A stretch of DNA of 64,000 bases from an uncultured Verrucomicrobiae bacterium (GCA_963812605.1 CAWEWF010000010.1:160001-224000); one strand, 5' to 3'; numbered from the stretch's first letter, positions 1,283 to 59,389 are shown. Notes: generated from the letters alone by a model not told the origin. Translations and numbers: made by a program.

Positions 1283-1388
1283 TTGGAATCAAGCAATTTT
1301 GGTTTTGTGAAGATGATGGTTGCCCACGAAATAGCTCGCGGCGCGCCAGCTTGACGGAGCCGGAGGCCATGGATATGATTCCAGGCCG

Positions 1389-2080
1389 ATGAGATGGATT
1401 TTCACGTTCGTTGCCCTTTGTCTTTTATTCGCCGGGTGCCAGTCTAACCAATCTGTACAGGTTTTGTCTCCTGAGAAATTCGTCGCTGCCACCGGGGGCG
1501 AAGCCTACAGCAGCACGGAAACGAATGCAACGACTGCGACGAATGCCAAACCGAGGGTGATTGTGCCCGGGGTCACCATCAGCGTGACGGTGGATGAAGA
1601 TCACAGCCTGAATCGCGCGTACTTGATTCCGAACAGCGGGGCGATTGACTATCCGCCGCTCGGACGGATTGCGGTGGAAGGCCTCACGCCGGACGAGGTG
1701 GCGCAGAAGATCCGGGAGAGTTTGGAGAAGGACTATTTTCAGAAGGCCACGGTGACCGTGGCGGTCGAGGCGGTGCCCATCGTCGGCGGCGCCGGAGCGG
1801 GGTGATCTATGTGACTGGCAATGTGAATCGGCCCGGGCCGCTGTTGTTGCCGAAGGACGAGAAGTTTACCGTGACGAAGGCGATCATCGCCGCGGGAAAT
1901 TTCGCGACCTTCGCCAATGGCGGCAAAGGTGCAACTGATCCGTTACAACGAAGCCGGCAAGAAATATGTCACCTATGTTGATGTGGATCGAATCATGAAG
2001 CGGGGCGAATTTGAAAAGGACATCCAGGTGCAAAACGGGGACTGGATCATCGTGCCCGAGAAATTGTGATCAACTTTTAG
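1389..2080 (+). CDS. Polysaccharide export lipoprotein (Wza/SLBB family), frameshifted near 1800, 1925 and 2068
   Basis: Lipobox FAGC; Poly_export motif GAIDYPPLGRIAVEGLTPDEV; continues in other frames as VIYVTGNVNRPG and DIQVQNGDWIIVPE (SLBB). Confidence 0.8.
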
Positions 2081-2104
2081 TCGCGGGGCGGAATTGTCCA
2101 TGCG

Positions 2105-3777
2105 CTATATCCCGGGTTTTGTTTCCCGGGCAGCGCCTCCCAGAAGCTGGCGCGCGCGCGAGAGGGCCGCGTCGATGTTGGCGCAGACGTTGTCCAGCCC
2201 GATTTTGTCCACGAACCCGGCGTTGTAGAGCACTTTCATCGGTTGCGGTTGGACGCCGCTCAGGATCAGTTGCGTGCCCTTGCGGTGGAACTTGTCGAGC
2301 ATGATTTCGAGGGCGTGCAGGCCCGTTGCATCGACGGCCGGCACGTTGCGCATGCGGAAAATGACGATGCGTGGCACGGTCGAATACCGGTCCAGGGCTG
2401 TTTCGAGTTTCTCCGCCGCGCCGAAAAAGAACGGACCCTCGATCCGATAGACCAGCACGCCTTCGGGAATTTCCTTGTCCCGAATCGAGCCCCCGCCAAC
2501 GTCCATTTCGCTGTCGGCGGTGACCAGACGGATCTGCGTGATTTCTTCCATCCGACGAACAAATAAAGCGCCCGCCATTGTCAGCCCCACTCCGACCGCG
2601 ATCGTGAGATCAAAAATCACTGTCAACCCGAACGTCACCACCAGCACGACGAAATCGCTCTTTGGTCCGCGCCACAACTCGAGAAAGTTTTCCCATTCGC
2701 CCATCCGGTAGGCAACGACCAAGAGGACCGCGCTCAGGGCGGCCAGCGGAATGGATTTCGCCAGCGGCGCGGCGACCAGGACGATTACCAGCAACGTGAT
2801 TGAATGGATTATGCCGGCCACTGGCGTCTTTGCGCCGCTGCGGATGTTCGTCGCGGTGCGCGCGATGGCGCCGGTCGCGGAAATGCCGCCGAAGAACGGG
2901 CAGAGGATGTTGGCGAGTCCCTGGCCTATCAATTCCTGGTTGGAATCGTGCCGCGACTCGATCATGCCGTCGGCCACAATCGCCGACAGGAGCGACTCAA
3001 TCGCGCCCAACATCGTGATCGTCAGCGCCGGGATCATCAGGTCCTGCACCTGCAGGAAGCTGATTCTGGGGAAGGAAATGCCCGGCAGGCCGCGCGGGAT
3101 GCCGCCGAACTTCGAGCCGATGGTCGGGACATCGATGTGAAAAACCGCCACCAGCACGGTCGTCACGATGACCGCCACAATCGACGCGGGCACACGCCGC
3201 CACGCTTTCGGCCAAGAATCAGGATCGCGACGGCCAGGAAACCAAGCCCGAGCGCGGGCCCTTGCGTCTGCGCGAGGTTTTGGGCGAGGGCTGCGATTTG
3301 CTAGGGCGTGTGCGCGGGCATCTTCACCGTCAGTCCGAAGAACTCCTTGAGTTGGCCGACGAAGATGATCACGGCGATCCCGCTGGTGAAGCCGGAGGTG
3401 ACGGGGTAGGGGATGAATTTGATCAGGTTGCCGAGCTTCAAAGCGCCCATGATCACGAGCATGATGCCCGCCATGATCGTCGCCACCACCAGCCCGTCAT
3501 AGCCGTACTTCACCACGATCACAAAAAGGATCGGCACAAACGCGCCCGTCGGTCCGCCAACCTGCACGAGGCTGCCGCCGCAAGCGGAAATGACAAAGCC
3601 GGCGATGATCGCTGTCCACAATCCGCGCGACGGTTCGACGCCGGAAGCGATTGCAAACCCAATAGCCAGCGGCAGCGCCACCACCCCGACGGTCACCCCC
3701 GCCGCAAGGTCGGACAAAAAGGTCATACGGTCATAGCCACGCAGCGCGTCGAGTAATTTGGGACGAAAAACGAACAT
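2105..3777 (-). CDS. SulP family anion transporter with STAS domain, split by frameshift(s) at ~3200-3310
   Basis: DLAAGVTVGVVALPLAIGFAIASG; GGPTGAF; ESLLSA..DSNQELIGQG; STAS-like YRIEGPFFFGAA and DATG. Confidence 0.9.
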
Positions 3778-4019
3778 TTGGCAAAGAGTAGTAACAGACG
3801 ACTGACGCGGCGCAAGAGAAAAGCGGGAGGGCTCGGGAATGAGGTGGCGATGCGCGAAAATTCACTGCGAAGGCGGCAACTGCGCTTTGCTTTCTTCTGG
3901 AAATCGAATTCCGATAATGCTATATTCCGAGGTATGGTCTTGGATTGGAAGTGGAATGGCGGGACAAGATGGCGCGATTGTGAAATTGTTCGGGGTCCAA
4001 GAGGGGCTATGCGTTTCTG

Positions 4020-4197
4020 CGAAACGAACCCACCGTTTTGTGGTGAAATTTATGACGCAACATCCATTGCATATGGTGGTAACGACGAAAAATCACTGGA
4101 AATTCGGTGGGTTCGTTTTGGAAAACGAACCCACATTTGAGGGGTTTTTGGTCGGTCCGGTGGCGCGAAGACAGCATTTTGGCGGAAAACGAGCCAT
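4020..4197. repeat. Intergenic AAACGAACCCA direct/inverted repeat cluster
   Basis: aaacgaacccac at ~4022 and ~4124, inverted gtgggttcgtttt at ~4107, degenerate aaaacgagcca at ~4186. Confidence 0.6.
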
Positions 4198-4375
4198 TTT
4201 CGGGGGAGTATTAGAGGTGTTTTCGGCTCAATCCTCTGATGAAAGAATGACAAGCGGGCCGCTTGTCCTACAAATCCGGCTGCGACGAACGTACGACGGC
4301 AAGCGGAGCGTTGCGCCGTCAGCACGGACTCGGCGCATCTCGTCGGACTCGGTTTGCCCTACAAGTCCGAACCGC

Positions 4376-4756
4376 TCAGCCGCCGTTGGATTCGGCCCAC
4401 TGGGCCTTGCGCTCGGCGATCAGCTTGTCGAACTTCTCCTGTTGATCGGGACGGAGCAGGACGCGCAATTTGGCTTCGGAACGGCCGAGAAGGTCTTCCA
4501 CCTGCGGTTGGATTTGCTTGCGAATGGCTTTCATCTCTCCCTGGCCTTCCGCGACGATGACGCGCAACTGTTCGCGCTGCGCCCGGTCCAGTCGCAGTTC
4601 CCAACTCAGCCGGCGGACGATCAGGTCCGCCAGCATCTGGCTGCCGTGTCCGTGCACGAGTCGATGGCGGACCAGGCCGATGGTCGTGATGCTCCCGGCC
4701 ACGCCGCCCAGGATGAAGATGGCGATGACGCCGACGATCGCTTTCCAGTTTTTCAT
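4376..4756 (-). CDS. Small membrane-anchored helical protein (Spy/CpxP or periplasmic sensor-like)
   Basis: N-terminal TM helix; L-x-L-D-x-x-Q and LRPDQQEKF (LTxxQ-like); coupled to the upstream gene. Confidence 0.6.
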   Translation of the reverse strand: MKNWKAIVGVIAIFILGGVAGSITTIGLVRHRLVHGHGSQMLADLIVRRLSWELRLDRAQREQLRVIVAEGQGEMKAIRKQIQPQVEDLLGRSEAKLRVLLRPDQQEKFDKLIAERKAQWAESNGG

Positions 4757-5049
4757 TGTGTTCCTCCCGAGAAGAAGTTCACCAGTGTGTTTTCATCGCG
4801 GTCACCGGCAATCGCGCTTTGCAGGTCGGTCGCGCTCGAATCGGTGTACGTCCATATCCCGAGCGCCACGACGATGGCGGCGAAGGCGGGAACCAGTTTC
4901 CAGGCGAACGCGTACCACGGCATGGACTGTTCCCGTTCCGCGCGCAGGCGCGCCACCAAACGTGTCTCGAAGCCGTACTCGGCGCGTGATGTGTCGGGTT
5001 TGTTCCCGCGCGCGGCGGCGAACAGTTTGTCCAATCGTTCATCGTTCAT
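4753..5049 (-). CDS. Putative single-TM anti-sigma factor
   Basis: Overlaps the ECF sigma stop; short cytoplasmic N-terminus plus one TM segment. Confidence 0.55.
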   Translation of the reverse strand: MNDERLDKLFAAARGNKPDTSRAEYGFETRLVARLRAEREQSMPWYAFAWKLVPAFAAIVVALGIWTYTDSSATDLQSAIAGDRDENTLVNFFSGGTQ

Positions 5050-5587
5050 GGCTTGTCTCCAATATCTTTTTCAGGGACTGGCGCGCGCGAAACGCGCGCA
5101 CCTTTACATTCGACTCGCTCCAGCCGGTCAACTCCGCCGTTTCGCGCACGGACTTTTCCTCCAACTCCAGCAACGTAATCACCAGCCGTTCGTCCGCCGA
5201 AAGCCGGGCCATCGCCCACTGCAATACCTCGGTTGCGTCCCGGGCGCTGACATTGTCCCGCACCCCGATCTCGATCCCATCGAGCGACACGTTCTGCCGG
5301 TCACGGCGGGTCTTGCGCAGGAAATCATAACAGGAGTGGACGGCGATGCGCGAGATCCAGTGTTCGAACGGCGCCTCGCCGCGAAAGCCGTTCAACTTCT
5401 GATACGCCTTCACGAAGATCTCCTGGCAAATATCGTCGAGTTCGTGGTCGTTGCGGGCAAAACGGGCCGCGATGCCGAACACCTTGCGCTTGTGCCGCCG
5501 CACCAACTCCGCGAACGCCTCATCGTCGCCCGCGAGGGTGGACTGAATGAGGCGTTCGTCAGTCGGTTCATCGATGGGCGCGCTCAT
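5039..5587 (-). CDS. ECF RNA polymerase sigma-70 factor
   Basis: GDDEAFAELVRRH; DDICQEIFVKAY; FEHWISRIA; region 4 SVRETAELTGWSESNVKVRAFRAR. Confidence 0.92.
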   Translation of the reverse strand: MSAPIDEPTDERLIQSTLAGDDEAFAELVRRHKRKVFGIAARFARNDHELDDICQEIFVKAYQKLNGFRGEAPFEHWISRIAVHSCYDFLRKTRRDRQNVSLDGIEIGVRDNVSARDATEVLQWAMARLSADERLVITLLELEEKSVRETAELTGWSESNVKVRAFRARQSLKKILETSHER

Positions 5588-5600
5588 CGCGCGACCATTA

Positions 5601-6083
5601 TTAGTCTGCCGCGATGCGGTTGGCAACTCGATGAAGGAATCCATCAATGCGTGCGTCAACATCGATCTGCATGTCCTTGAGCTTCTGCAATTGGTCCGGC
5701 GTCAGCACGGCGCGGATGTCGTGCGCGACATACGCGCGCTGCACCGCGAGGTCGGACTCCAGCGAGGCGACCTTCGCGGCCTGCGCGCGGATGGCGGTCT
5801 CGTCGATGGTCTGGGCGCGGATGGTGTCACGCAATGCGCGCCGCTCGCTTACGACCTGTTTGATCAGCGGCCCGACCGTCGGCTGGTACTTGCGGAGGAT
5901 GGTCTTCACTTCCGCTTTCTGGTCGGCGGTCACACCGAGCTGGGCCAGTTTCTGCGCGAAGCGTCCTCTGCTGAAACCGACATCGTTGGTGCTATTCGCG
6001 TGCGCGAGGAACGCGAAGAAACCGCCCACGGTGAGGACGATGATGGCTCCGGCTGCGATCAATACCTTTGTATGTGTCTTCAT
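5601..6083 (-). CDS. Spy/CpxP family periplasmic protein
   Basis: Signal/TM N-terminus; two LTxxQ motifs (LGVTADQK, VLTPDQL). Confidence 0.8.
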   Translation of the reverse strand: MKTHTKVLIAAGAIIVLTVGGFFAFLAHANSTNDVGFSRGRFAQKLAQLGVTADQKAEVKTILRKYQPTVGPLIKQVVSERRALRDTIRAQTIDETAIRAQAAKVASLESDLAVQRAYVAHDIRAVLTPDQLQKLKDMQIDVDARIDGFLHRVANRIAAD

Positions 6084-47920: not shown

Positions 47921-48628
47921 CTATGGGTGCCCGTAAGCAATCCACGATGGTAGCTGCGCTTCTCCTAGCCTCAACCTGGCCTCACCCAGGACACTACCAT
48001 CCAGCTCGCGGGCACCCGCCAATTCCCCCGCCTCCCCGCGCTCCCGGTAAATCCGATAGCTCTCCATCACATCGGTGACATAATCCCGCACGCTCGGAAA
48101 CGTAATCCCCCCCACAAACTCCCCCACCGTCACCTCACGCCCCCGCGGCAGCCACCGCACCACATTCGCCAACCCCGCATTATACTCCGCCAACCCCAAC
48201 GCCACCCGCAACTCCGCCCCCCGCTCCGGCCACCGCCCCATCGCCCGCCCCAGATACCACGTCCCCGCCTCCACATTCACCCGCGCATCCCACAACAAAC
48301 TCCGCCCATAATCCCGCCGCCCCACCGCCCGCGCCCACTGCGCCCCCGCCCCCTCCGTCACCTGCATCAACCCAATCTCCCCGCGGCTCCCATACACCCA
48401 CGGATCAAACTTACTCTCCCGCCGCACCACCGCCTTCACCAAACACGGATCCACCCCATACTTCCCCGCCACCTCCCCGATCAATTTATCAAACCGCCGC
48501 TCCCGATACTCCCACCGCCACCACACAAACCCCGCCGACCCCACCGCCCCCACCACCAAAACGAGGCTGACCCAATTCCCGATCCTCTCGAATCCCGACG
48601 ATTTCCTCTTTCTGCGTTTCCCCGACAT
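47921..48628 (-). CDS. Lytic transglycosylase (SLT domain) with an N-terminal TM
   Basis: AVVRRESKF, GEIGLMQV, NVEAGTWYL, AEYNAG, RDYV. Confidence 0.88.
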   Translation of the reverse strand: MSGKRRKRKSSGFERIGNWVSLVLVVGAVGSAGFVWWRWEYRERRFDKLIGEVAGKYGVDPCLVKAVVRRESKFDPWVYGSRGEIGLMQVTEGAGAQWARAVGRRDYGRSLLWDARVNVEAGTWYLGRAMGRWPERGAELRVALGLAEYNAGLANVVRWLPRGREVTVGEFVGGITFPSVRDYVTDVMESYRIYRERGEAGELAGARELDGSVLGEARLRLGEAQLPSWIAYGHP

Positions 48629-48699
48629 ATCCCACGACTATACCGCACCCCCTCTCAATTGGTCGCCCCTCAATTGTTATACCGCAGTGCCCAAAGGCT

Positions 48700-49040
48700 T
48701 TGGTGGCGCAAGCGTCCCTGCTTGCGGCTGTTTTCCTGTAGCAGCCCCCGCTTTCAACGTCATTGGTAGGGACGGCTCTCCGAGCCGTCCGTCCTCCCCG
48801 TAGAATGGGCGTCCCGCCCGTTCTCCTGCCGCCCGCCGTCACACGCCGCCTTCTCCAATCTTAAATCCCAAATCCTAAATCCAAAATTGCCCCGCCGTCC
48901 TCCCCGTTGAACAGGCGTCCCGCCTGTTGCCCCCACCCGTCCTCCTCGCCAACCCCGAACCGCGAACCGTGAACCGAGAACCCGCTTGCCGTCCCCTCCG
49001 CCAAAACCGCGAACCCCGAACCGCGAACCGTGAACCGCCC
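48700..49040. repeat. Composite spacer: REP-like palindromes plus 7-bp periodic repeats (AAATCCN, GAACCNN) and CCGCCAAAACC motif
   Basis: gtagggacggctctccgagccgtcc; aacaggcgtcccgcctgtt; aaatcccaaatcctaaatccaaaat; gaaccgcgaaccgtgaaccgagaacc. Confidence 0.8.
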
Positions 49041-51286: not shown

Positions 51287-51883
51287 ATGAGTTCGCCTTT
51301 GACCCATCGTAAAGCCACCCAGGCTCTGAATTTTATGGCCCGACAATCTGGTGGCCGTATTAGTCGGTTAAAAGCGCTAAAGCTACTTTTCTTTGCTGAC
51401 CGATACCATCTGCGTAAATATGGACGGACGGTTAGCGGATGTACCTATTATGCAATGACTCATGGCCCAGTGGCGTCCGAAGCGAAGAGCATTGCAGAAG
51501 ACGATGACCGTTTGCCTTCACCCGCGCGAACCTACGGCCGGCGATTTCTCCGCAAGCGCGATTTCGATTATGCCTCGGTTGTCAACGTGGATAAATCTGT
51601 CCTGTCAGTCAGCGACCTCGAGGCGTTGGACTTTTCCTGGAAGAATTTCGGGCGATTTAACAAGTATCAACTTCGTGATATCACGCACCACTACCCCGAG
51701 TGGAAGCGCCACGAAGGTGCATTGGGGCATCCGACAAAACGCCGCGTGCCAATGGATTGTGCTGACTTTTTCGATGAGCCCGACGCGGGCTATATTCCCT
51801 GCCACGCTCTCAGCGAAGAAGAACGCAAAGCTGCGCGAGAATTGTTCCTTCAACGTCAGGCCTTCGACAAACGCTGGAGCTGA
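51287..51883 (+). CDS. Panacea (DUF4065/SocA) domain antitoxin
   Basis: KALKLLFFADRYHLRKYGR.V....YYAM.HGPV, LRDITHHYPEW. Confidence 0.85.
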   Translation: MSSPLTHRKATQALNFMARQSGGRISRLKALKLLFFADRYHLRKYGRTVSGCTYYAMTHGPVASEAKSIAEDDDRLPSPARTYGRRFLRKRDFDYASVVNVDKSVLSVSDLEALDFSWKNFGRFNKYQLRDITHHYPEWKRHEGALGHPTKRRVPMDCADFFDEPDAGYIPCHALSEEERKAARELFLQRQAFDKRWS

Positions 51884-51886
51884 TCC

Positions 51887-52327
51887 TTGGCAGGTGCCGG
51901 CATCGATGTCAAACTCCGGCTGAGTCTCCGCGAAGGAAGTATCTATTATTTTACAGATCGCTCACTCACCTCGACGGAGCCGCACTACTTCATCGTCATC
52001 AATTCGGCCCCGCTCACCCAGTGCGTGCTCCTGCTCTGCGTAGTGACCTCCCAGGTCGCGAACGTAAAACTCCGGCGCAAGACCTGCCCAGAGACTCTCG
52101 TCGAGCTCTCGCCGACCCTGTTTGATGTCCTGAACAAATCATCCATTGTAGATTGTAACGACTTGAAGCAGGTCTCTCTGATCGAGTTCAACACCCGATT
52201 CGTGCGCAAGGAAATCCGCTATTTCGACAAGGACTTGCCCGCTGCATTGCGCAGAGCGCTTCGCAAGGCCATCCACGCCAGCAACATTGTCTCGCCGGAG
52301 CTGAAGGCTCTTGTTAATAGGCCATAA
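51887..52327 (+). CDS. Putative toxin, PemK/MazF-like fold
   Basis: GSIYYF....EPHYFIVIN..LLCVVTS..SIVDCN; directly downstream of the Panacea gene. Confidence 0.55.
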   Translation: MAGAGIDVKLRLSLREGSIYYFTDRSLTSTEPHYFIVINSAPLTQCVLLLCVVTSQVANVKLRRKTCPETLVELSPTLFDVLNKSSIVDCNDLKQVSLIEFNTRFVRKEIRYFDKDLPAALRRALRKAIHASNIVSPELKALVNRP

Positions 52328-52401
52328 TCGGGGCGGCCCCGATAAACACTCTACCACGGCAAGCTTGTCGAAGAGGCGCCGACTGACTACACTGCGCGCA
52401 A

Positions 52402-53988
52402 ATGCCGACGCTGAATTGGATCGGGAAAGAGGCGGTGGTGAACCACCACCTCAAGGTGCCCTTCCATCTCCTCAAGGACGTGCCCGATCTCTCCGTTGGC
52501 GATCCGGGCAGTGGCAATCTCATTGTGCAGGGGGACAATCTCGTCGCGCTCAAGGCGCTGCTGCCGTACTACGCCGGGCAGGTCAAGTGCATCTATATCG
52601 ATCCGCCGTACAATACCGGCAACGAAGGCTGGGTTTACAACGATAACGTCAATAGCCCTCTCATTCAACAATGGCTCAATAAAACCGTCGGAGACGAAGC
52701 CTCCGACCTCTCCCGCCACGACAAATGGCTCTGCATGATGTATCCAAGATTACAGTTGCTTTGGAAGTTTCTAAGGAATGACGGTTCAATTTGGATTTCG
52801 ATGGATGACTCGGAGATCTCCAACCTGCGCTTTCTTTGTGAAGAGATTTTCGGTCGCGACAAATTCGTTGCCAGCAATGTCTGGCAGAAGCGGTACTCGC
52901 GCGAAAACCGTGAAGCGATTGGCGACGTTCACGAGTACGCGCTTGTCTATGCAAAGAATCCGGAGTTATTCAAGGTAGCGCGCAATCGCGTACCGATAGA
53001 CGAAGCACAAGCCAAGATTTACAAAAATCCCAAAAACGATCCTCAGGGGCGGTGGCGTGGCATTCCCATGACCGCGCAAGGTTGGCGGCCTAATCAGATG
53101 TATGAGATCATCTCGCCCGCAGGTATCAAACACGAGCCACCAGAAGGTCGTTGTTGGAGCATGGTTGAAAGTGAGTTCAAGAAACTCCTAGCCGACGGAC
53201 GAATCTACTTTGGCAAGGACGGCAAATCGCAGCCGAGCGTCATTCGCTACCTTTCGGAAGTTGATGGCTTCGTCCCGTGGACTTGGTGGCCGCATGACGA
53301 AGTAGGCCACACCGATGAGTCACGCAAAGAGATTCAAACAATACTGGGCACGCAGACAGCATTCGAAACACCGAAACCTGTTCGTCTTCTTGAGCGAGTC
53401 CTTCAAATCGCCACCAATCCCGGTGACTTGGTTCTCGATTCGTTTGCAGGCTCGGGCACGACCGGTCATGCGGTATTGAAGCTCAACAAAGAAGTCGCAG
53501 CAGACCGTCGCTTCATCCTCGTGGAGATTGAAGCGAAAATTGCACGTGAAGTTACAGCCGAACGCGTCCGCCGTGTCATCAAAGGTTACGGTGAGACGCC
53601 GGGCCTGGGCGGCGGGTTCCGGTACTGCGAGCTTGGCGAGCCGGTTTTCGACGCGCAACGGAAGATCAACCCGAAGGTGCGGTTTGGAGATCTGGCGCGG
53701 CATGTCTATTTCGTGGAAACCGGCGAGCCCTTGCCAAACGGCAAGCCAGCAAAATCGGCGTTGTTGCACATCTGTCGCGGCATTGGGATTTATTTGCTCT
53801 TCAATGGCATCCTCGGCGATAAGAAGGTTGACGGCGGCAACATACTGACGCGCCCGGTGCTGGCGAAACTCCCGAAATATGACGGACCAAAAGTGATTTA
53901 TGCGGCAGGTTGCCGGCTTGGTGAGGCGAGCTTGCGGGCCGAGGGAATCACGTTTCGCCAGACGCCGTACGAGATCAAAATGTCATGA
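52402..53988 (+). CDS. Type III R-M methyltransferase (Mod)
   Basis: MPTLNWIGK, QGDNL.ALKAL, YIDPPYNTG, TPKP, LDSFAGSGTTGHAV. Confidence 0.92.
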   Translation: MPTLNWIGKEAVVNHHLKVPFHLLKDVPDLSVGDPGSGNLIVQGDNLVALKALLPYYAGQVKCIYIDPPYNTGNEGWVYNDNVNSPLIQQWLNKTVGDEASDLSRHDKWLCMMYPRLQLLWKFLRNDGSIWISMDDSEISNLRFLCEEIFGRDKFVASNVWQKRYSRENREAIGDVHEYALVYAKNPELFKVARNRVPIDEAQAKIYKNPKNDPQGRWRGIPMTAQGWRPNQMYEIISPAGIKHEPPEGRCWSMVESEFKKLLADGRIYFGKDGKSQPSVIRYLSEVDGFVPWTWWPHDEVGHTDESRKEIQTILGTQTAFETPKPVRLLERVLQIATNPGDLVLDSFAGSGTTGHAVLKLNKEVAADRRFILVEIEAKIAREVTAERVRRVIKGYGETPGLGGGFRYCELGEPVFDAQRKINPKVRFGDLARHVYFVETGEPLPNGKPAKSALLHICRGIGIYLLFNGILGDKKVDGGNILTRPVLAKLPKYDGPKVIYAAGCRLGEASLRAEGITFRQTPYEIKMS

Positions 53989-54567
53989 GGCCGAAGAAAA
54001 CAGTCGAGACGCTGATTCTGACGGTGCGCGGACACAAGGTCATTCTGGATGCCGATTTGGCGGAGTTGTACGGTGTGGCGACGAAGCGTTTCAATGAAGC
54101 GTTCAAACGCAATCGGCAGCGATTTCCCGATGATTTCGCATTTCAATTAACGGCAAAAGAGTTTGAGACATTGCGCACACCGAACTCATCGCAGATCGCG
54201 ATAAGTTCCGGCGACGAACGGGCCCAACCGAACTGGCCGCAATTTGCGACCAGTTCCCGCAAGCACCGCGGCGCGGCCTATCGTCCATGGGCCTTCACCG
54301 AACACGGCGCGCTTCAAGCGGCGAACATTCTTCGGAGCCAGCGGGCGGTGGAAATGAGCCTGTATGTCATCCGCGCGTTTGTGAAAATGCGGGAAGAACT
54401 GGCGGTGAACCGGGAGATTCTCAAGCGATTGACGGAAATCGACAAGACGCTGCTGCAGCATGATTCCGCCTTGCGGGACGTTGTACCGGAAGCTGTTGCC
54501 GCTTCTCGAACCGCCGCCAGTTCCTCCGCAGCGGCGCATCGGTTTCAAACAGGATGACGCATCATGA
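53985..54567 (+). CDS. ORF6N (KilA-N-related) DNA-binding protein, frameshift at ~54481
   Basis: RGHKVILDADLAELYGV, KRN..RFPDDFAFQLT, PWAFTEHG, IRAFVKMRE; the alternative frame gives the typical ending PPQRRIGF, overlapping the res ATG. Confidence 0.88.
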
Positions 54568-57524
54568 ACGTCTCGCTCAAACCCTACCAACAACGCGTCC
54601 TCGATTCGTTGCGCGATTTCTTGCGTGAGTGCGTCCGCACGAAGAATCCGAGCGGCGCGTTTGCGACAGTCACGCAGCGGCTTTTCGGGACCGCCCAACC
54701 CTACTTCCCGGTTCAAATACCAGAACTGAGCGGCTTGCCATATGTTTGCTTGCGGGTGCCAACGGGCGGCGGCAAGACGCTCCTGGCATGCCACGCCGCC
54801 GGTATCGCGCAAAGTGATTTCGTCCAAGCCGACCGGTCAGTTGTGCTATGGCTCGTGCCCAGTAACACCATCCTGGACCAAACGGCTCGGGCGCTGTCAG
54901 ACAACCGGCATCCCTACCGGCGCGCCCTGGAAATGGGCGTTGGCGGGACCGTCGAAGTACTGGCGATTGACGAGGCCCTGCGTATGTCCCGCGCGACGGT
55001 GGACGGCCAGACCGTCGTCATCGTGGCGACAATCCAGAGTTTCCGGGTCGAGGACACAACCGGACGCAAGGTGTACGAAGATAACGGGTATTTGCAGGCG
55101 CACTTTGACGGCTGGCCGGAGCATCTACTAGCCGGTCTTGAACGCGGCCCCGACGGCAAACCGGTGCGCTCATTGGTCAATGCGCTGCGCTTGCGCCGTC
55201 CCATCGTAATTGTGGACGAAGCGCATAACGCGCGGACGGAACTTTCGTTTGCGACGCTCGGCAAAGTCCTGCCGTCTTGCATTATTGAATTCACGGCGAC
55301 GCCCGCATTGGAACACAAGCCGTCGGTGGGGCGGTTCCCGTCCAATGTGCTCCACCGCACATCAGCAGCGGAATTAAAAGCGGCGGCGATGATCAAGTTG
55401 CCGTTGCGCGTCATCAACCGTGCTTCCAGCCAGAAGGAGGAGTTGCTGGCGGAAGCGGTGATATTACGGAGCGATCTCGAGAAAGTCGCGCTTACCGAGG
55501 GCCAGGCGACCGGCGAGTACATCCGTCCCATTTTGTTGATCCAAGCGGAACGCATTAGCGACACCGAGCCGTTGCGCGACCGAATGGTGAAGGAGTTGCG
55601 GTTGAGCGCGGATGAGATCAAGATTTCCACCGGCAGTCTTGACGAATTGAAGGACATCAAGGACATCGCCGCGCCGAACTGTCCGGTTCGCCACATCATC
55701 ACCGTGCAGAAGCTCGCGGAGGGCTGGGATTGTCCATTTGCCTATGCGCTGTGCACCTTGAAGGAGACACGGTCGGCCACAGCGATCGAGCAAATCGTGG
55801 GACGCGTGCTGCGGCTGCCGAATGTCGAGTTCAAGCGGCATGCCGAGTTGAATTGCGCGTATATTTTTTCGTGCTCGGATTCCCTGCCAACCGTGTTGGG
55901 CGAATTTCAGCACGCCCTGGAATTGAATGGTTTCACACCAGCGGAGGCGGAGCAGATTATCATTCCGGCGTCTTCGCCGAATCTGCCCCTTGGTGTCCAA
56001 CCGAGATCAGTGACCGTCGATCCGTCGAAGGATTTTGACACGACGCTTGTGAAAGCAAATGCGCCTGAGTTGATCGGCAAGGTAGCATTCGATACCGAGA
56101 CTGGGACGATCCGGGTGCTGGCGCCCCTGACGGACGACGAAGAAAAAGCGTTGTACGCTTGCTTGCGAACCGATGAGGCCCGTAAGAAAGCTGCCTCGGT
56201 TGTGCGCGAGGTCGCGAAAGCAGCGGAGACATTCGGCGCAAGCAAACCAAAAGCGGCGACCGGTTATGAGAAGCAGGTAAGTTTTATCGTTCCCCTGCTC
56301 GCTCTCCGGCAGAACGATCTGCTTTGGGAGTTTGACAAGACGGACCTGCTGGAACGGGAGTGGAAGCTTTCCGAGAAAGACGCAACCATCAGCGAAACCC
56401 TGTATTCAAGCAAGCGGCCCACGGGCGATCTGGCGGAAATCGACGTGGAGGCCACTGGCAGGGTTAAAGTGCAGCAGGTCCACGAAGCCCGACCCGAAGA
56501 TTTCGTTGGTAAATTACATCAACAGGTTTGGGCCATCGCGAGCGAGCAGAACTGGACAGCCGAAGACCTGATTCAATGGCTGGACCAGCACGTCGAGCAC
56601 CGCGACATTCCCGCCAACGAATCGGCGGAGTTTCTCCGCAAGGTAATACAGGGGTTATTGAGCAGCCGGGGTTTTGCGGACATTGGCGCGCTCGTATTGG
56701 ATCGGCACCGGTTGCGCGATGCCGTCGCGCATAAAATTGACGAGCACCGTCGGACGGAACACACCCAGGCATTCCACGACCTACTTTCGTCCGCGTCGGG
56801 CCTGGTGGTGTCGCCTGAGAAAGCAGTTGATTTCTCAAAAATCATCTACGACCCAAGTTGGTGGTACGACGGTGCGTTTCAATTCCAAAAGCATTACTTC
56901 GGCAAAGTTGGTGAGTTGAAATCGGGTGGTGAAGAGTATGAGTGCGCGATGTTCCTCGACGGCTTGGACGACGTGAAGTACTGGGTCAGGAATCTGGCCA
57001 AGCGCCCCACGGCATTTTCTCTGCAAACTTCCACGGATCGCTTTTACCCAGACTTTGTTTGCTTGCTGAAAGACGGGCGGGTATTGGTCGTGGAGTACAA
57101 GGGCAAGGATCGCTGGGATGGCATCGACGCGACAGAGAAACGCGCGATTGGCGCGGTTTGGGAGGGGCGAAGCCGAGGTAAGTGCCTCTTTTTAATGCCT
57201 GAGGGCAAAGACTTTCAAAGCATATCGAAGAAAATAGCGGGGCAAAGCGCGGTGGATTCGGCTGCAAAAGAGGCTACATTAGATACAAGAAGTATGCCCG
57301 GCATTGGCAAAAACATTGAGGTTTGTGGCGGCGTGGCCAGAATCGCTGGAACTCGGATTCCGGTTTGGGTCTTGGTGCAGGCGCGACGACTGCACATGGA
57401 CGATGCGGAGATTCTCAGGAATTATCCGAGTCTTAGCGCCAAAGAATTGGAGCAAGCCTGGGAATACGCTGAAACACATCAGGCCGAGATTGATGAGGAT
57501 GTCCGATCCAACGAGAACGCCTGA
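54564..57524 (+). CDS. Type III restriction helicase-nuclease (Res) with an in-frame C-terminal DUF433 domain
   Basis: PTGGGKT, VDEAH, TATP, EGWDCP, QIVGRVLR, FYPDF...VEYKG; then VCGGVARIAGTRIPVWVL..NYPSL....AWEYA. Confidence 0.88.
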   Translation: MNVSLKPYQQRVLDSLRDFLRECVRTKNPSGAFATVTQRLFGTAQPYFPVQIPELSGLPYVCLRVPTGGGKTLLACHAAGIAQSDFVQADRSVVLWLVPSNTILDQTARALSDNRHPYRRALEMGVGGTVEVLAIDEALRMSRATVDGQTVVIVATIQSFRVEDTTGRKVYEDNGYLQAHFDGWPEHLLAGLERGPDGKPVRSLVNALRLRRPIVIVDEAHNARTELSFATLGKVLPSCIIEFTATPALEHKPSVGRFPSNVLHRTSAAELKAAAMIKLPLRVINRASSQKEELLAEAVILRSDLEKVALTEGQATGEYIRPILLIQAERISDTEPLRDRMVKELRLSADEIKISTGSLDELKDIKDIAAPNCPVRHIITVQKLAEGWDCPFAYALCTLKETRSATAIEQIVGRVLRLPNVEFKRHAELNCAYIFSCSDSLPTVLGEFQHALELNGFTPAEAEQIIIPASSPNLPLGVQPRSVTVDPSKDFDTTLVKANAPELIGKVAFDTETGTIRVLAPLTDDEEKALYACLRTDEARKKAASVVREVAKAAETFGASKPKAATGYEKQVSFIVPLLALRQNDLLWEFDKTDLLEREWKLSEKDATISETLYSSKRPTGDLAEIDVEATGRVKVQQVHEARPEDFVGKLHQQVWAIASEQNWTAEDLIQWLDQHVEHRDIPANESAEFLRKVIQGLLSSRGFADIGALVLDRHRLRDAVAHKIDEHRRTEHTQAFHDLLSSASGLVVSPEKAVDFSKIIYDPSWWYDGAFQFQKHYFGKVGELKSGGEEYECAMFLDGLDDVKYWVRNLAKRPTAFSLQTSTDRFYPDFVCLLKDGRVLVVEYKGKDRWDGIDATEKRAIGAVWEGRSRGKCLFLMPEGKDFQSISKKIAGQSAVDSAAKEATLDTRSMPGIGKNIEVCGGVARIAGTRIPVWVLVQARRLHMDDAEILRNYPSLSAKELEQAWEYAETHQAEIDEDVRSNENA

Positions 57525-57871
57525 TGACGCGATTTTATTCGAACGAGAATTTTCCCCAAGGAACAGTTGAGGCGCTCAGGCAACTGGGACACGATGTTTT
57601 GACATCGCATGACGCGGGCAAGTCCCGACAGGCTATCCCCGACGAAGACGTCCTCGGATTTGCCACGACTGAAAATCGAGTGCTTTTGACACTTAACAGA
57701 AAAGACTTTATCCATCTTCACAAGAACGTCCAGGGCTCCCATCCTGGAATAATTGTTTGCACTCAAGATGCGGATTACCTTGGTCAAGCCCAACGAATCG
57801 ATGCCGCGACTGCCGAACATGCAATTCTCGACGGGAAATTGATACGAGTGAATCGACCGAACCGAGCCTAG
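57524..57871 (+). CDS. DUF5615 PIN-like toxin
   Basis: FYSNENFP, LRQLGHDV, DEDVL.FA...RVLLTLNRKDF, HPGII. Confidence 0.85.
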   Translation: MTRFYSNENFPQGTVEALRQLGHDVLTSHDAGKSRQAIPDEDVLGFATTENRVLLTLNRKDFIHLHKNVQGSHPGIIVCTQDADYLGQAQRIDAATAEHAILDGKLIRVNRPNRA

Positions 57872-58042
57872 CGGCGATTATCAGTCGTCTTCTGTACTTG
57901 TAAGGTAGAATTGTCCGCATCGTCAGCCGGGAGGCGGTTCGCAGTTCTGGATTTTGGCGGCGAACGGCGGCACGCGGGCCGCGTGCCCTACAATTCGGCG
58001 CAGGCGCGGTGCCCGTTCCTTGGCCCCTTGGCTACTTGGCTA

Positions 58043-58096
58043 CTGTTTCCCCGCCCGCGCCGTCCTCCCCCATCCCTCCCGCCAAAACCGAGAACC
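58043..58096 (+). repeat. Island spacer block, near-identical to 60889-60943
   Basis: ctgtttccccgcccgcgccgtcctccccc(c)atccct(c/t)ccgccaaaaccgagaacc. Confidence 0.85.
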
Positions 58097-58300
58097 GTCA
58101 ACCGCAAACTGCGACCCAGCGGAACTCGCCCCCCGCGTTAATAAAAACAGGAAGAAGGGTCAGTCCCGCATAATCGCATATTTCCAAACAAACCTTGCCG
58201 CCCCGACTCGTCCGCAATAGCATGAACTGCACTGGCTGCGCTACCCGCCGCGATGTAGTCGTCGCGGCAACCGAGCCATCCCACTGCGACGCCCGATTCC

Positions 58301-58609
58301 TTACCCGCGCTCTTCGCTCGAGTAGATGACCACCCCTTCACGGGCGATCTTCTCCTTGAGCCGCGGATTGGTTGCCTGCTCGGGACGCACCACGTCGAGT
58401 TCGTAAATAAGCGGAGCATTTTCCACCGCTTGGCAGATGTCCGCCCATTCCGCCGTCGTCGCGTTCGGCGCGGAGATGGCCAGGTCCAGATCGGAAGCCC
58501 GGCGCGCCGTGTCCGTCGCGCGCGAGCCGAACACCTTCACCTCGCGCACCGCCGGAAAACGGCGGAAAGTTGTCCGCAACGCCTCAAGCTCCTTGGCGCG
58601 CAGCTTCAT
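58301..58609 (-). CDS. Minimal nucleotidyltransferase (MNT) antitoxin
   Basis: FGSRA........SDLDLA (GSx10DxD). Confidence 0.9.
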   Translation of the reverse strand: MKLRAKELEALRTTFRRFPAVREVKVFGSRATDTARRASDLDLAISAPNATTAEWADICQAVENAPLIYELDVVRPEQATNPRLKEKIAREGVVIYSSEERG

Positions 58610-58613
58610 TCGC

Positions 58614-59018
58614 CTACTCCCACGCCAGCCCCTGAATCCGTTCCGCCATGCGCCGCAACAACGGCGCATAATCCTGCGCGATATGCTGATAGATCCGCTG
58701 CGCCAGTGCTTCGTCATACGCATGACTGGTCAGGTTCCGATCGTCCAGCATTTGCAGCCACACGTCCGCCTCTTCGGGCGACTGGATCAGGCCCTCGGAA
58801 AAGGATTTCTTCAACGTCGCCCGCGGGCTCCCACACTCCAGACCCCGATGTTCAAGGTAAAGCTGCAGAGCCTTCCATGTGAGTTCAAAAGTGAACTCAA
58901 ACCGTTGAATCACCGCGTCCCGAACGATGGAACTTTCCGCTTGCGTCACCGCCTCTTGCAACCGCGCCACCGCGTTCTGCACCTCAGCCCGACGCTCCGC
59001 GAATCGCTGTTGGCTCAT
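58614..59018 (-). CDS. HEPN toxin (HI0074 / nucleotidyltransferase substrate-binding family)
   Basis: DAVIQRFEFTFELTWK, SPR, RNLTSH.Y (Rx4H). Confidence 0.9.
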   Translation of the reverse strand: MSQQRFAERRAEVQNAVARLQEAVTQAESSIVRDAVIQRFEFTFELTWKALQLYLEHRGLECGSPRATLKKSFSEGLIQSPEEADVWLQMLDDRNLTSHAYDEALAQRIYQHIAQDYAPLLRRMAERIQGLAWE

Positions 59019-59389
59019 GGGTTCACAACCCCTAATTTTCTCTCCAGCATCCCCCGAACAGTACCCCGTCACACCCCTACCAGCAAGCTATTGTAGGCCG
59101 TATGCCCCCCACATGTCGCCAGCTTGTCCGCCAGAGCACGATGTGCAACGGCGGACTTGTCTCGCTACAGCACAACGCGCGACGGCGGAAGCCGTCCGAT
59201 AAATGCACCTCTTCTGCCGTCCTACCGCCATCCCGCAGCCAATCCGCCAATCCAAAATCCTAAATCCAAAATCGGCAATTCGCCTACTGGTTACTGCCTC
59301 CCGCCAACCCGCGAACCATCCAGCCCATCAGGCGCATCAAAGACGAGTGATGGAACAAAGCTGTGCTTACTGTCTAAAGGAGATTCAAC

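Follow-up and report, generated by a model that had tools for sequence, protein, structure and literature searches.

The 64,000-nucleotide (nt) stretch of an uncultured Verrucomicrobiae bacterium analysed here (GCA_963812605.1, CAWEWF010000010.1:160001-224000; referred to as the window) contains a type III restriction-modification (RM) operon in which the restriction subunit, Res, runs on in frame into a complete DUF433 domain of the antitoxin type. The next gene overlaps the end of this fusion and encodes a DUF5615 PIN-like toxin candidate. RM systems and toxin-antitoxin (TA) modules are neighbours in defence islands; a direct physical link between the two is, to our knowledge, documented essentially only for PrrC. 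The Res-DUF433 fusion is real and conserved and is no indel artefact.

Layout and integrity of the Res-DUF433 reading frame

The fusion is a single open reading frame (ORF; 54564-57524, plus strand) of 986 amino acids (aa), followed by an ORF of 115 aa (57524-57871, plus strand). Pfam places ResIII on Res residues 3-248 (1.7e-13), and the helicase motifs PTGGGKT (66-72) and DEAH (218-221) can be read directly. The nuclease motif FYPDF...VVEYK (D830, E844, K846) was identified by motif reading only and is conserved in all aligned relatives; in NCBIfam, Res had only far sub-threshold matches, with no dedicated nuclease model at cut-off, and the PIN protein had none. A partner Mod is encoded in the same operon (52402-53988). 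By its helicase, its nuclease motif and its Mod partner the ORF is assigned to the type III Res subunits, and ATP-dependent cleavage of unmodified DNA is predicted for it.

The PADLOC model REase_III spans residues 5-885 (6.6e-115); because the model ends there, residues 886-986 are extra. As the original prediction had read it, an in-frame linker of about 25 residues leads from Res into a complete DUF433, which both the ORF listing and Pfam confirm (residues 916-969, covering 3-56 of the 56 positions in the profile; 2.7e-16; 59.6 bits, cut-off 23.6). The domain also matches PDB entry 2GA1, the structure of a lone DUF433 (1.1e-15 by sequence, 6e-30 by profile), and its designation as a COG2442/DUF433 antitoxin-type domain thus holds. 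The usual form of this antitoxin is a small free-standing protein of about 70-120 aa; in the window it is instead residues 916-969 of a 986-aa Res. An AlphaFold2 (AF2) model of residues 780-986 consists of two confident domains and a low-confidence linker (pLDDT 53 in model block 121-130, corresponding to residues 900-909; pTM 0.57). The linker holds an out-of-frame TAG (57235-57237), an in-frame GTG (57252) and an in-frame ATG (57294).

The sequence AAAATAG at 57231-57237 makes an assembly artefact conceivable, in which one extra A at 57231-57234 joins a Res ending in ...SISKK to a separate DUF433 gene. It had been pointed out before that the TAG is out of frame as read and that the loss of one A would bring it into frame, and this is correct. 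The frame is, however, kept elsewhere. We searched the genomes of 60 relatives and the window's own genome (G000) and found the same architecture in a different species of the same genus (G011), where the last 157 residues match over their full length and in one frame within a 1006-aa open frame (73% identity). The ORF in G011 likewise encodes a Res-DUF433 of 986 aa, behind which a DUF5615 gene (114 aa) starts at the same TGATG. Window and G011 align over 3308 nt without a gap until the last PIN codon, with DNA identities of 82.2% in Res and 66.3% in the DUF433-PIN cassette and third-position identities of 59% and 45%. The lack of any gap at such divergence shows that the frame outlasted a long divergence. 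The junction DNA reads ATAGCGGGGC in the window and ATAAGCGGGC in G011, and this difference excludes a shared sequencing error; at the protein level P0121, P0389 and P0388 likewise keep the frame. In four close relatives without the fusion (74-76% identical) the protein extends 3-8 residues past the KK, and in none of them does it stop at the KK itself.

Parts of the stretch are also present in four public soil-metagenome runs of one study. Nine contig pieces from these four runs align to 56757-57452 and 57772-57900 with 0 gaps, leaving 56700-56756, 57453-57771 and other stretches uncovered, and a single piece crosses the critical site. This piece (57085-57299, 215 nt) has 7 substitutions, 0 gaps and a depth of 2.4; because of its substitutions it is taken to come from a variant strain. 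The independent coverage of 57231-57237 is therefore thin, being one contig of low depth, yet it is independent of the window consensus and has no indel there. Taken together, an assembly artefact is extremely improbable.

Recurrence of the fusion and exchange of the restriction core

The architecture is rare. Altogether 461 genomes were searched, namely the 61 above and 401 from a phylum-even sample (400 plus G000, which is common to both sets), and Res-DUF433-PIN was found in G000 and G011 only. Of the phylum-even set, 27 genomes gave a match at E<=1e-8, and G000 alone spans both halves in one frame. A GTDB-wide scan with 585 relatives, evaluated for the best 80 of 599 stretches, returned the G011 contig as the only fused one, and among 113 loci with the Res nuclease part DUF433 and PIN adjoin it only in G000 and G011.

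The protein databases do contain homologous fusions, which the original prediction had left to be sought: besides G011 these are P0002, P0006, P0012, P0144, P0388 and P0393. Among the 120 relatives listed for residues 780-986, PF04851 and PF04255 occur together in three (P0002, P0006 and P0012; 968-972 aa, 46-51% identity). P0144, from the representative search, is fused and 940 aa long, P0388 is a fused, partial type III enzyme, and P0393 (936 aa) has the domain on a different ResIII family with a RE_endonuc-like region. A search with DUF433 for longer proteins scored 147 candidates and returned 7 proteins, so the number of fused forms is a lower bound. A further protein, P0389, has 202 aa, comprises the last ~110 residues of a window-like Res plus DUF433 and lies on a contig of 261,410 nt. 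Either Res has decayed here with its antitoxin part retained, or the gene was called behind a frameshift. The contig of the PIN protein P0270 is also 261,410 nt long.

To place the fused forms we used a tree of Res only (60 rows, DUF433 part removed, quick IQ-TREE, LG+G4). The 7 fused rows fall in three places; at least 3 changes are needed to explain them, 3 are also forced by the starred branches, and none of 500 label shuffles reached so low a count. The placement of P0144 is unsure because of its long branch. P0388 agrees with the window at 70 of 78 positions in the DUF433 part (~90%) and is ~32% identical in the Res part, and its junction differs, with the similarity beginning at window residue M911; a near-identical cassette was therefore grafted onto a Res that is very different. 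Five fused lineages can thus be distinguished (the window with G011, P0121 and P0389; the P0002 clade; P0144; P0388; P0393), and DUF433 is C-terminal in all of them. The Res-DUF433 fusion originated independently in at least three, probably five, Res lineages.

DUF433 was also seen at the C-terminus of unrelated N-terminal regions in P0197, P0163, P0135 and P0251. In P0197 (389 aa) this region has a weak, sub-threshold similarity to the Mrr_cat-like restriction endonucleases (E 0.0072), and fusion of DUF433 to nucleases may be wider than Res.

The comparison with another relative, G004, bears on the history of the cassette. By one marker, a segment of PriA, G004 is nearer to the window than G011 is (93% identity against 81-84%). 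We compared a 12-kb locus of this genome, L149 (G004:C1:33000-45000), in which 1330-5702 corresponds to window 52351-57871. Within L149 the two genomes have only two blocks in common. One is window 52351-52503, which covers 51 nt of leader plus the 102 nt at the start of mod (153 nt; L149 5550-5702 against window 52503-52351, 93% identity by blastn), and the other (87% identity) runs from ATAG at 57234 to the end of the PIN gene at 57871. In the interval G004 encodes a 1167-aa type IIG (MmeI/Eco57I-like) RM protein with MmeI_N, HSDR_N, N6_Mtase, Eco57I and TaqI_C, where the window has mod-ORF6N-res. The type IIG gene stops at the same TAG that the window has out of frame. In G004, DUF433 and PIN are encoded by free-standing genes, with identities of 92% for DUF433 (90 aa from GTG) and 86% for PIN. 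The remnant of mod suggests that a type III core was the earlier occupant in G004. The RM core was swapped between fixed flanks, with the antitoxin-toxin cassette retained whole, which is what would be expected if loss of the antitoxin were lethal. A similarity between the tail of the type IIG protein and the tail of Res was considered and rejected on the reading frames; DNA homology begins only at ATAG.

The PIN-like gene and its predicted complex with the fused domain

The gene behind the fusion matches DUF5615 on residues 3-111 of its 115 aa (7.6e-23) and has no other Pfam match. The PIN family comprises 2919 of 2926 candidate proteins at E<=1e-5. An alignment of 43 sequences, in which the window protein is row 1 and is therefore included in "invariant" by construction, has 16 invariant columns (Y5, N9, R19, G22, D24, D40, V43, L44, R52, T56, N58, R59, F62, H73, G75 and C79) and 26 nearly invariant ones, among them N7, E8 and D82. 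The window residues fit the consensus, and by sequence the protein looks like an intact DUF5615 toxin candidate. The AF2 model (pLDDT 93) has an alternating alpha/beta fold with five strands. Foldseek found no match for this model in the PDB at E<=0.001, and sequence and profile searches of the PDB with PIN gave nothing credible. In 2017 the DUF5615/COG4634 family (Mut7-C group) was listed as having no solved structure (PMC5499597).

That the Res-DUF433 stop overlaps the ATG of the PIN gene, as had been proposed, is evident from the raw sequence (TGATG at 57522-57526). The same TGATG, which puts DUF433 directly upstream of a PIN-type gene in one operon, is found in the window, G011, G004 and L123. 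L123 is a high-GC JGI metagenome contig that is 75% identical to P0002; it is the only one of 25 loci that reaches the last residue of P0002 and thus stands in for the P0002 clade. It encodes a Res-DUF433, then a DUF5615-like ORF at the overlapping TGATG. The PIN gene lies directly 3' of the fusion in all three fused loci with readable downstream DNA (window, G011, L123); the downstream DNA of P0002, P0006, P0012, P0144, P0388, P0389 and P0393 falls outside this comparison. With an overlap of one base, Res-DUF433 and PIN are predicted to be translationally coupled.

We predicted the complex of Res residues 896-986 with PIN, using an own alignment for each chain, three runs and 3 controls. The complex score was 0.84 (0.83-0.85 in the three runs), compared with 0.01 for the best of the 3 controls. 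The score mark is reached by 116 of 157 solved complexes and by 2 of 215 mismatched pairs, counts that apply here only approximately, because the alignments were our own. Agreement between the runs is at least 100% of the contacts, and the pLDDT of the partner is at least 89. On the PIN side the predicted interface comprises residues 7-9, 34-41, 57-61 and 78-83, including the conserved N7, E8, N9, D40, N58, R59, C79 and D82. On the DUF433 side it comprises the invariant TRIPVW segment, and R36 of the domain (R931 of Res) contacts PIN residues 7-9. The fused domain is thus predicted to cover the conserved pocket of PIN, which supports binding; a tethered DUF433 as the partner of PIN is what had been suggested originally, and the model agrees with it. 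Sequence and profile searches of the PDB yielded no complex of this kind.

Pairs of PIN and COG2442 proteins were predicted to be TA modules by Makarova et al. 2009 (PMC2701414), and one such pair, VapBC10 of Synechocystis PCC 6803, was validated by toxicity, neutralisation, complex formation and ClpXP-dependent decay of the antitoxin (PMC3834315), so that the VapBC-like nature of DUF433-PIN pairs has experimental backing. As in VapBC10, DUF433 is located here directly upstream of the PIN-type toxin gene, with which it is co-transcribed in that system (PMC3834315); binding of antitoxin and toxin was shown there and is predicted here. We infer the antitoxin activity of the fused domain from its family and from the predicted complex. 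Unlike in VapBC10, the putative antitoxin is no small labile protein but the C-terminal domain on a restriction subunit of 890 residues. The antitoxin fusions described in the part of Makarova et al. 2009 considered here are to winged helix-turn-helix domains only (PMC2701414).

The antitoxin might also be supplied from internal starts. In the window GTG 57252 is preceded by a weak GGGG at -13, and ATG 57294 lies at the domain border without a Shine-Dalgarno-like motif. In G011 GTA stands in place of the GTG, and the ATG is retained. From the region of the nuclease motif to the DUF433 core L123 offers no in-frame ATG, GTG or TTG, and because of this a supply in fused form only is likely in some lineages. 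The residue at the ATG position is W in the P0002 clade, K in P0144 and R in P0393. A scan of 51800-58400 gave 3 promoter-like and 11 terminator-like sequences, against shuffle means of 2.3 and 8.5, and no usable signal of an internal promoter or of the operon end.

The locus, its surroundings and its possible role

The features of the locus are compiled in the table.

Features of the type III RM unit with the Res-DUF433 fusion (window coordinates)
Feature	Coordinates	Strand	Evidence or remark
Upstream leader of the unit	52351..52401	+	With the first 102 nt of mod, left conserved flank common to G004
Type III Mod methyltransferase, 528 aa	52402..53988	+	Pfam N6_N4_Mtase 6.4e-42; PADLOC MTase_III 2e-196, residues 1-527
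ORF6N-domain gene, 190 aa, between mod and res	53985..54557	+	Pfam ORF6N 4.3e-27; PADLOC candidate defence family PDC-S05 3.3e-43
Res core: superfamily 2 (SF2) helicase and C-terminal PD-(D/E)xK nuclease	54564..57233	+	Pfam ResIII; PADLOC REase_III
Junction and linker, residues 891-915; left end of the DUF433-PIN cassette	57234..57308	+	G004 cassette homology starts at 57234
DUF433 (COG2442) antitoxin-type domain, residues 916-969, and C-terminal tail to 986	57309..57521	+	Pfam 2.7e-16; PDB 2GA1 1.1e-15
TGATG: Res-DUF433 stop and PIN start	57522..57526	+	One base common to both; raw sequence
DUF5615 PIN-like toxin candidate, 115 aa	57524..57871	+	Pfam 7.6e-23

The unit lies in a defence-rich stretch. 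Its GC content (0.53-0.59) is not clearly unlike that of its flanks, and when 51800-58400 was searched for repeats, none, direct or inverted, that would mark a mobile element was detected around the ends of the unit at ~52351 and 57871. The ORF6N gene overlaps mod in ATGA; it is absent at this place in G011, where the mod stop overlaps the res start. The middle of mod (window 52746-53424) has no blastn match to mod of G011, and both ends are 76-84% identical. This looks like a swapped target-recognition region and would give the two Mod proteins a different specificity.

Upstream of the unit a SocA/Panacea antitoxin-domain gene (51287-51883, plus strand; 2.1e-18) is followed after 4 nt by a 146-aa ORF (51887-52327, plus strand) without a Pfam or PADLOC match, a candidate for a Panacea-associated toxin of no known family. 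Downstream, on the minus strand (58301-59072), a nucleotidyltransferase gene (Polbeta/NTP_transf_2; PADLOC PDC-S09) and a NTase_sub_bind/HepT-like gene form a pair of the MNT-HEPN type; because the two ORFs overlap by ~110 nt, the downstream gene probably starts later than listed. There are 4 copies, with up to 2 mismatches, of an 18-nt motif, CCGCCAAAACCGAGAACC (48998, 50190, 58079 and 60926, plus strand), where 0 are expected. The copies are intergenic and bracket defence genes, and one of them is an arm of a 27-nt inverted repeat (57934-57960/58079-58105) just past the PIN gene; the motif may be a repetitive extragenic palindromic (REP)-like or miniature inverted-repeat transposable element (MITE)-like element. 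The 1-kb bin 48000-48999 stands out from its neighbours with a GC content of 0.644 and a GC skew of -0.497. Elsewhere in the same genome there are two more free-standing DUF433 genes (118 and 121 aa), at L002 1336-1973 (plus strand, contig C5) and L003 1157-1833 (minus strand, contig C14). Each is followed by a short PIN-like ORF starting with M(R/K)VL(I/F)DEC, and both are distant paralogues of the window cassette.

Several known systems resemble parts of this locus. As in canonical, EcoP15I-like type III RM systems, Mod is followed by a Res with SF2 helicase and PD-(D/E)xK nuclease, and the PADLOC matches run end to end; unlike there, Res has a C-terminal extension of 100 residues, a toxin gene overlaps it and an ORF6N gene is inserted between mod and res. 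Like PrrC-EcoprrI, the locus encodes an RNase-type toxin candidate within an RM locus with the restriction complex as inhibitor, an association that is predicted here. PrrC is an anticodon nuclease of the HEPN/ABC-ATPase type, kept latent by a type Ic RM complex without a classical antitoxin and activated by the T4 peptide Stp; here, unlike in PrrC, a canonical antitoxin domain is located on Res, the toxin would be PIN-like and the RM system is of type III. Matelska et al. 2017 described PIN genes near type I RM subunits, among them a DUF433-PIN_10 pair beside HsdM/HsdS/GmrSD in Belliella baltica (PMC5499597). In the part of that paper considered here these cases are neighbourhoods rather than fusions, type III Res fusions are not reported and a direct interaction of TA and RM components is stated not to have been shown until then (PMC5499597). 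We found no description of a Res-antitoxin fusion in the literature, judged mostly by titles and abstracts and excluding S7 of PMC5499597 and the tables of PMC2701414, which might list Res-linked cases. Both parts belong to known families and the combination is new.

We propose that the locus is a VapBC-type module in which the antitoxin is covalently part of Res, so that the supply of antitoxin would be tied to full-length Res; the truth of this whole chain we regard as evenly balanced. A mobile type III RM unit, mod-ORF6N-res, would carry DUF433 as a true C-terminal domain of Res, and the coupling at TGATG would keep synthesis of PIN, whose gene overlaps the end of res, in step with that of Res. 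The fused domain would bind PIN and cover its conserved pocket, so that every toxin molecule would be bound to a full-length Res and neutralised by it. The antitoxin makes up the final 90 of the 986 residues, and its supply would therefore require that Res be intact and translated to the end; if the unit were lost, or if translation stopped early within res, nothing would cover the toxin. Inactivation or loss of res is the usual escape from a costly RM system; the module would penalise it and thereby act as addiction and integrity guard of the mobile unit. This is suggested by the cassette being kept when the RM core was swapped, by the fusions being only C-terminal and by one lineage having no internal start. 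The stricter form, in which survival hinges on the uninterrupted translation of the whole 3-kb res, cells losing res are poisoned and the recurrence of the fusion was selected for this interlock, is somewhat doubtful.

Several observations weigh against the proposal, and the role of the locus as such is argued from sequence and models. The rarity of the architecture, with only G000 and G011 among the 461 genomes, makes a strong general advantage doubtful. The internal ATG 57294 (window and G011) or GTG 57252 (window) could allow a free antitoxin to be made as well. The free-standing cassette of G004 indicates that Res is not strictly needed, and P0389 may suggest that Res can decay while the antitoxin piece survives. 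The predicted coupling also weakens the interlock, since a premature stop in res would cut new PIN synthesis too. With regard to the toxin, the first motif position is N, the canonical D being replaced in most family members, and PIN is a putative toxin. In the VIA wide comparison the best Z was 8.1 and all 50 rows shown were generic three-layer alpha/beta folds (flavodoxin, CheY, TIR-like), with no PIN entry among them, which proves nothing either way.

Three other explanations have to be weighed against an addiction and integrity guard. The fusion might be neutral, a small indel at the left end of the cassette having merged adjacent ORFs, with DUF433 working as before, maybe also from the internal ATG or GTG, and the link to Res having no function. 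RM genes and TA cassettes may simply occupy common slots of defence islands, and the identity of the G004 stop with the out-of-frame TAG of the window means that fused and unfused forms differ by a one-base frame shift at the junction. The in-frame starts at 57252 and 57294, the rarity of the architecture and the two separate domains of the AF2 model with its low-confidence linker and pTM of 0.57 are consistent with this explanation. It accounts poorly, however, for at least 3 origins at the C-terminus of Res-type helicase-nucleases on the Res tree and the two further architectures of P0388 and P0393, for a frame kept without indel over a long divergence and for the lack of an internal start in L123. 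We consider it rather unlikely that the fusion is neutral. It is very improbable that the DUF433 winged helix is an extra DNA-binding or autoregulatory module for Res or the operon and the PIN-like protein no toxin here. DUF433 does have a DNA-binding three-helical or winged-helix fold, and VapB10 binds its own promoter (PMC3834315, PMC2701414), but the overlapping PIN gene is always present where the context is known (G000, G011, G004, L123) and the predicted interface covers the conserved residues of PIN.

The third explanation is a guard like PrrC, with PIN held latent on Res-Mod and freed or activated upon inhibition, degradation or titration of the restriction complex by a phage, which would lead to abortive infection as a second line of defence. 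The toxin gene within the RM operon, the predicted docking on the restriction subunit and the position of the locus among defence and TA genes (Panacea, MNT/HEPN, PDC-S05) would fit. PrrC-EcoprrI is a precedent (PMC12707154, PMC3506569), and Makarova et al. 2012 put forward the hypothesis that toxins are kept inhibited by the very immunity components with which they are associated (PMC3506569), an idea of which the present architecture is a literal case. Nothing points to a phage trigger, however, and the predicted interface is an ordinary domain-domain antitoxin contact without an evident tie to the state of Res. The cassette also persists free-standing behind the type IIG enzyme of G004, independent of Res, and the toxin candidate, a DUF5615 PIN-like protein of 115 aa, does not have the HEPN anticodon nuclease and the N-terminal ABC-type nucleoside triphosphatase of PrrC. 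Such a guard is therefore unlikely, and the evolutionary data point at least as strongly to an addiction and integrity module as to a role like that of PrrC.

The locus presents a restriction subunit that covalently carries a textbook antitoxin domain, an arrangement that has evolved repeatedly. It offers a testable system for the questions whether immunity proteins serve as antitoxins, whether TA modules police the integrity of defence genes and whether failure of restriction leads to growth arrest. The swap of an RM core next to a constant TA cassette is useful for understanding how defence islands get rebuilt. If the full-length interlock were true, it would be the first case of an immunity enzyme literally being the antitoxin, and the coupling of immunity and suicide hypothesised by Makarova et al. 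2012 would become testable with one construct.

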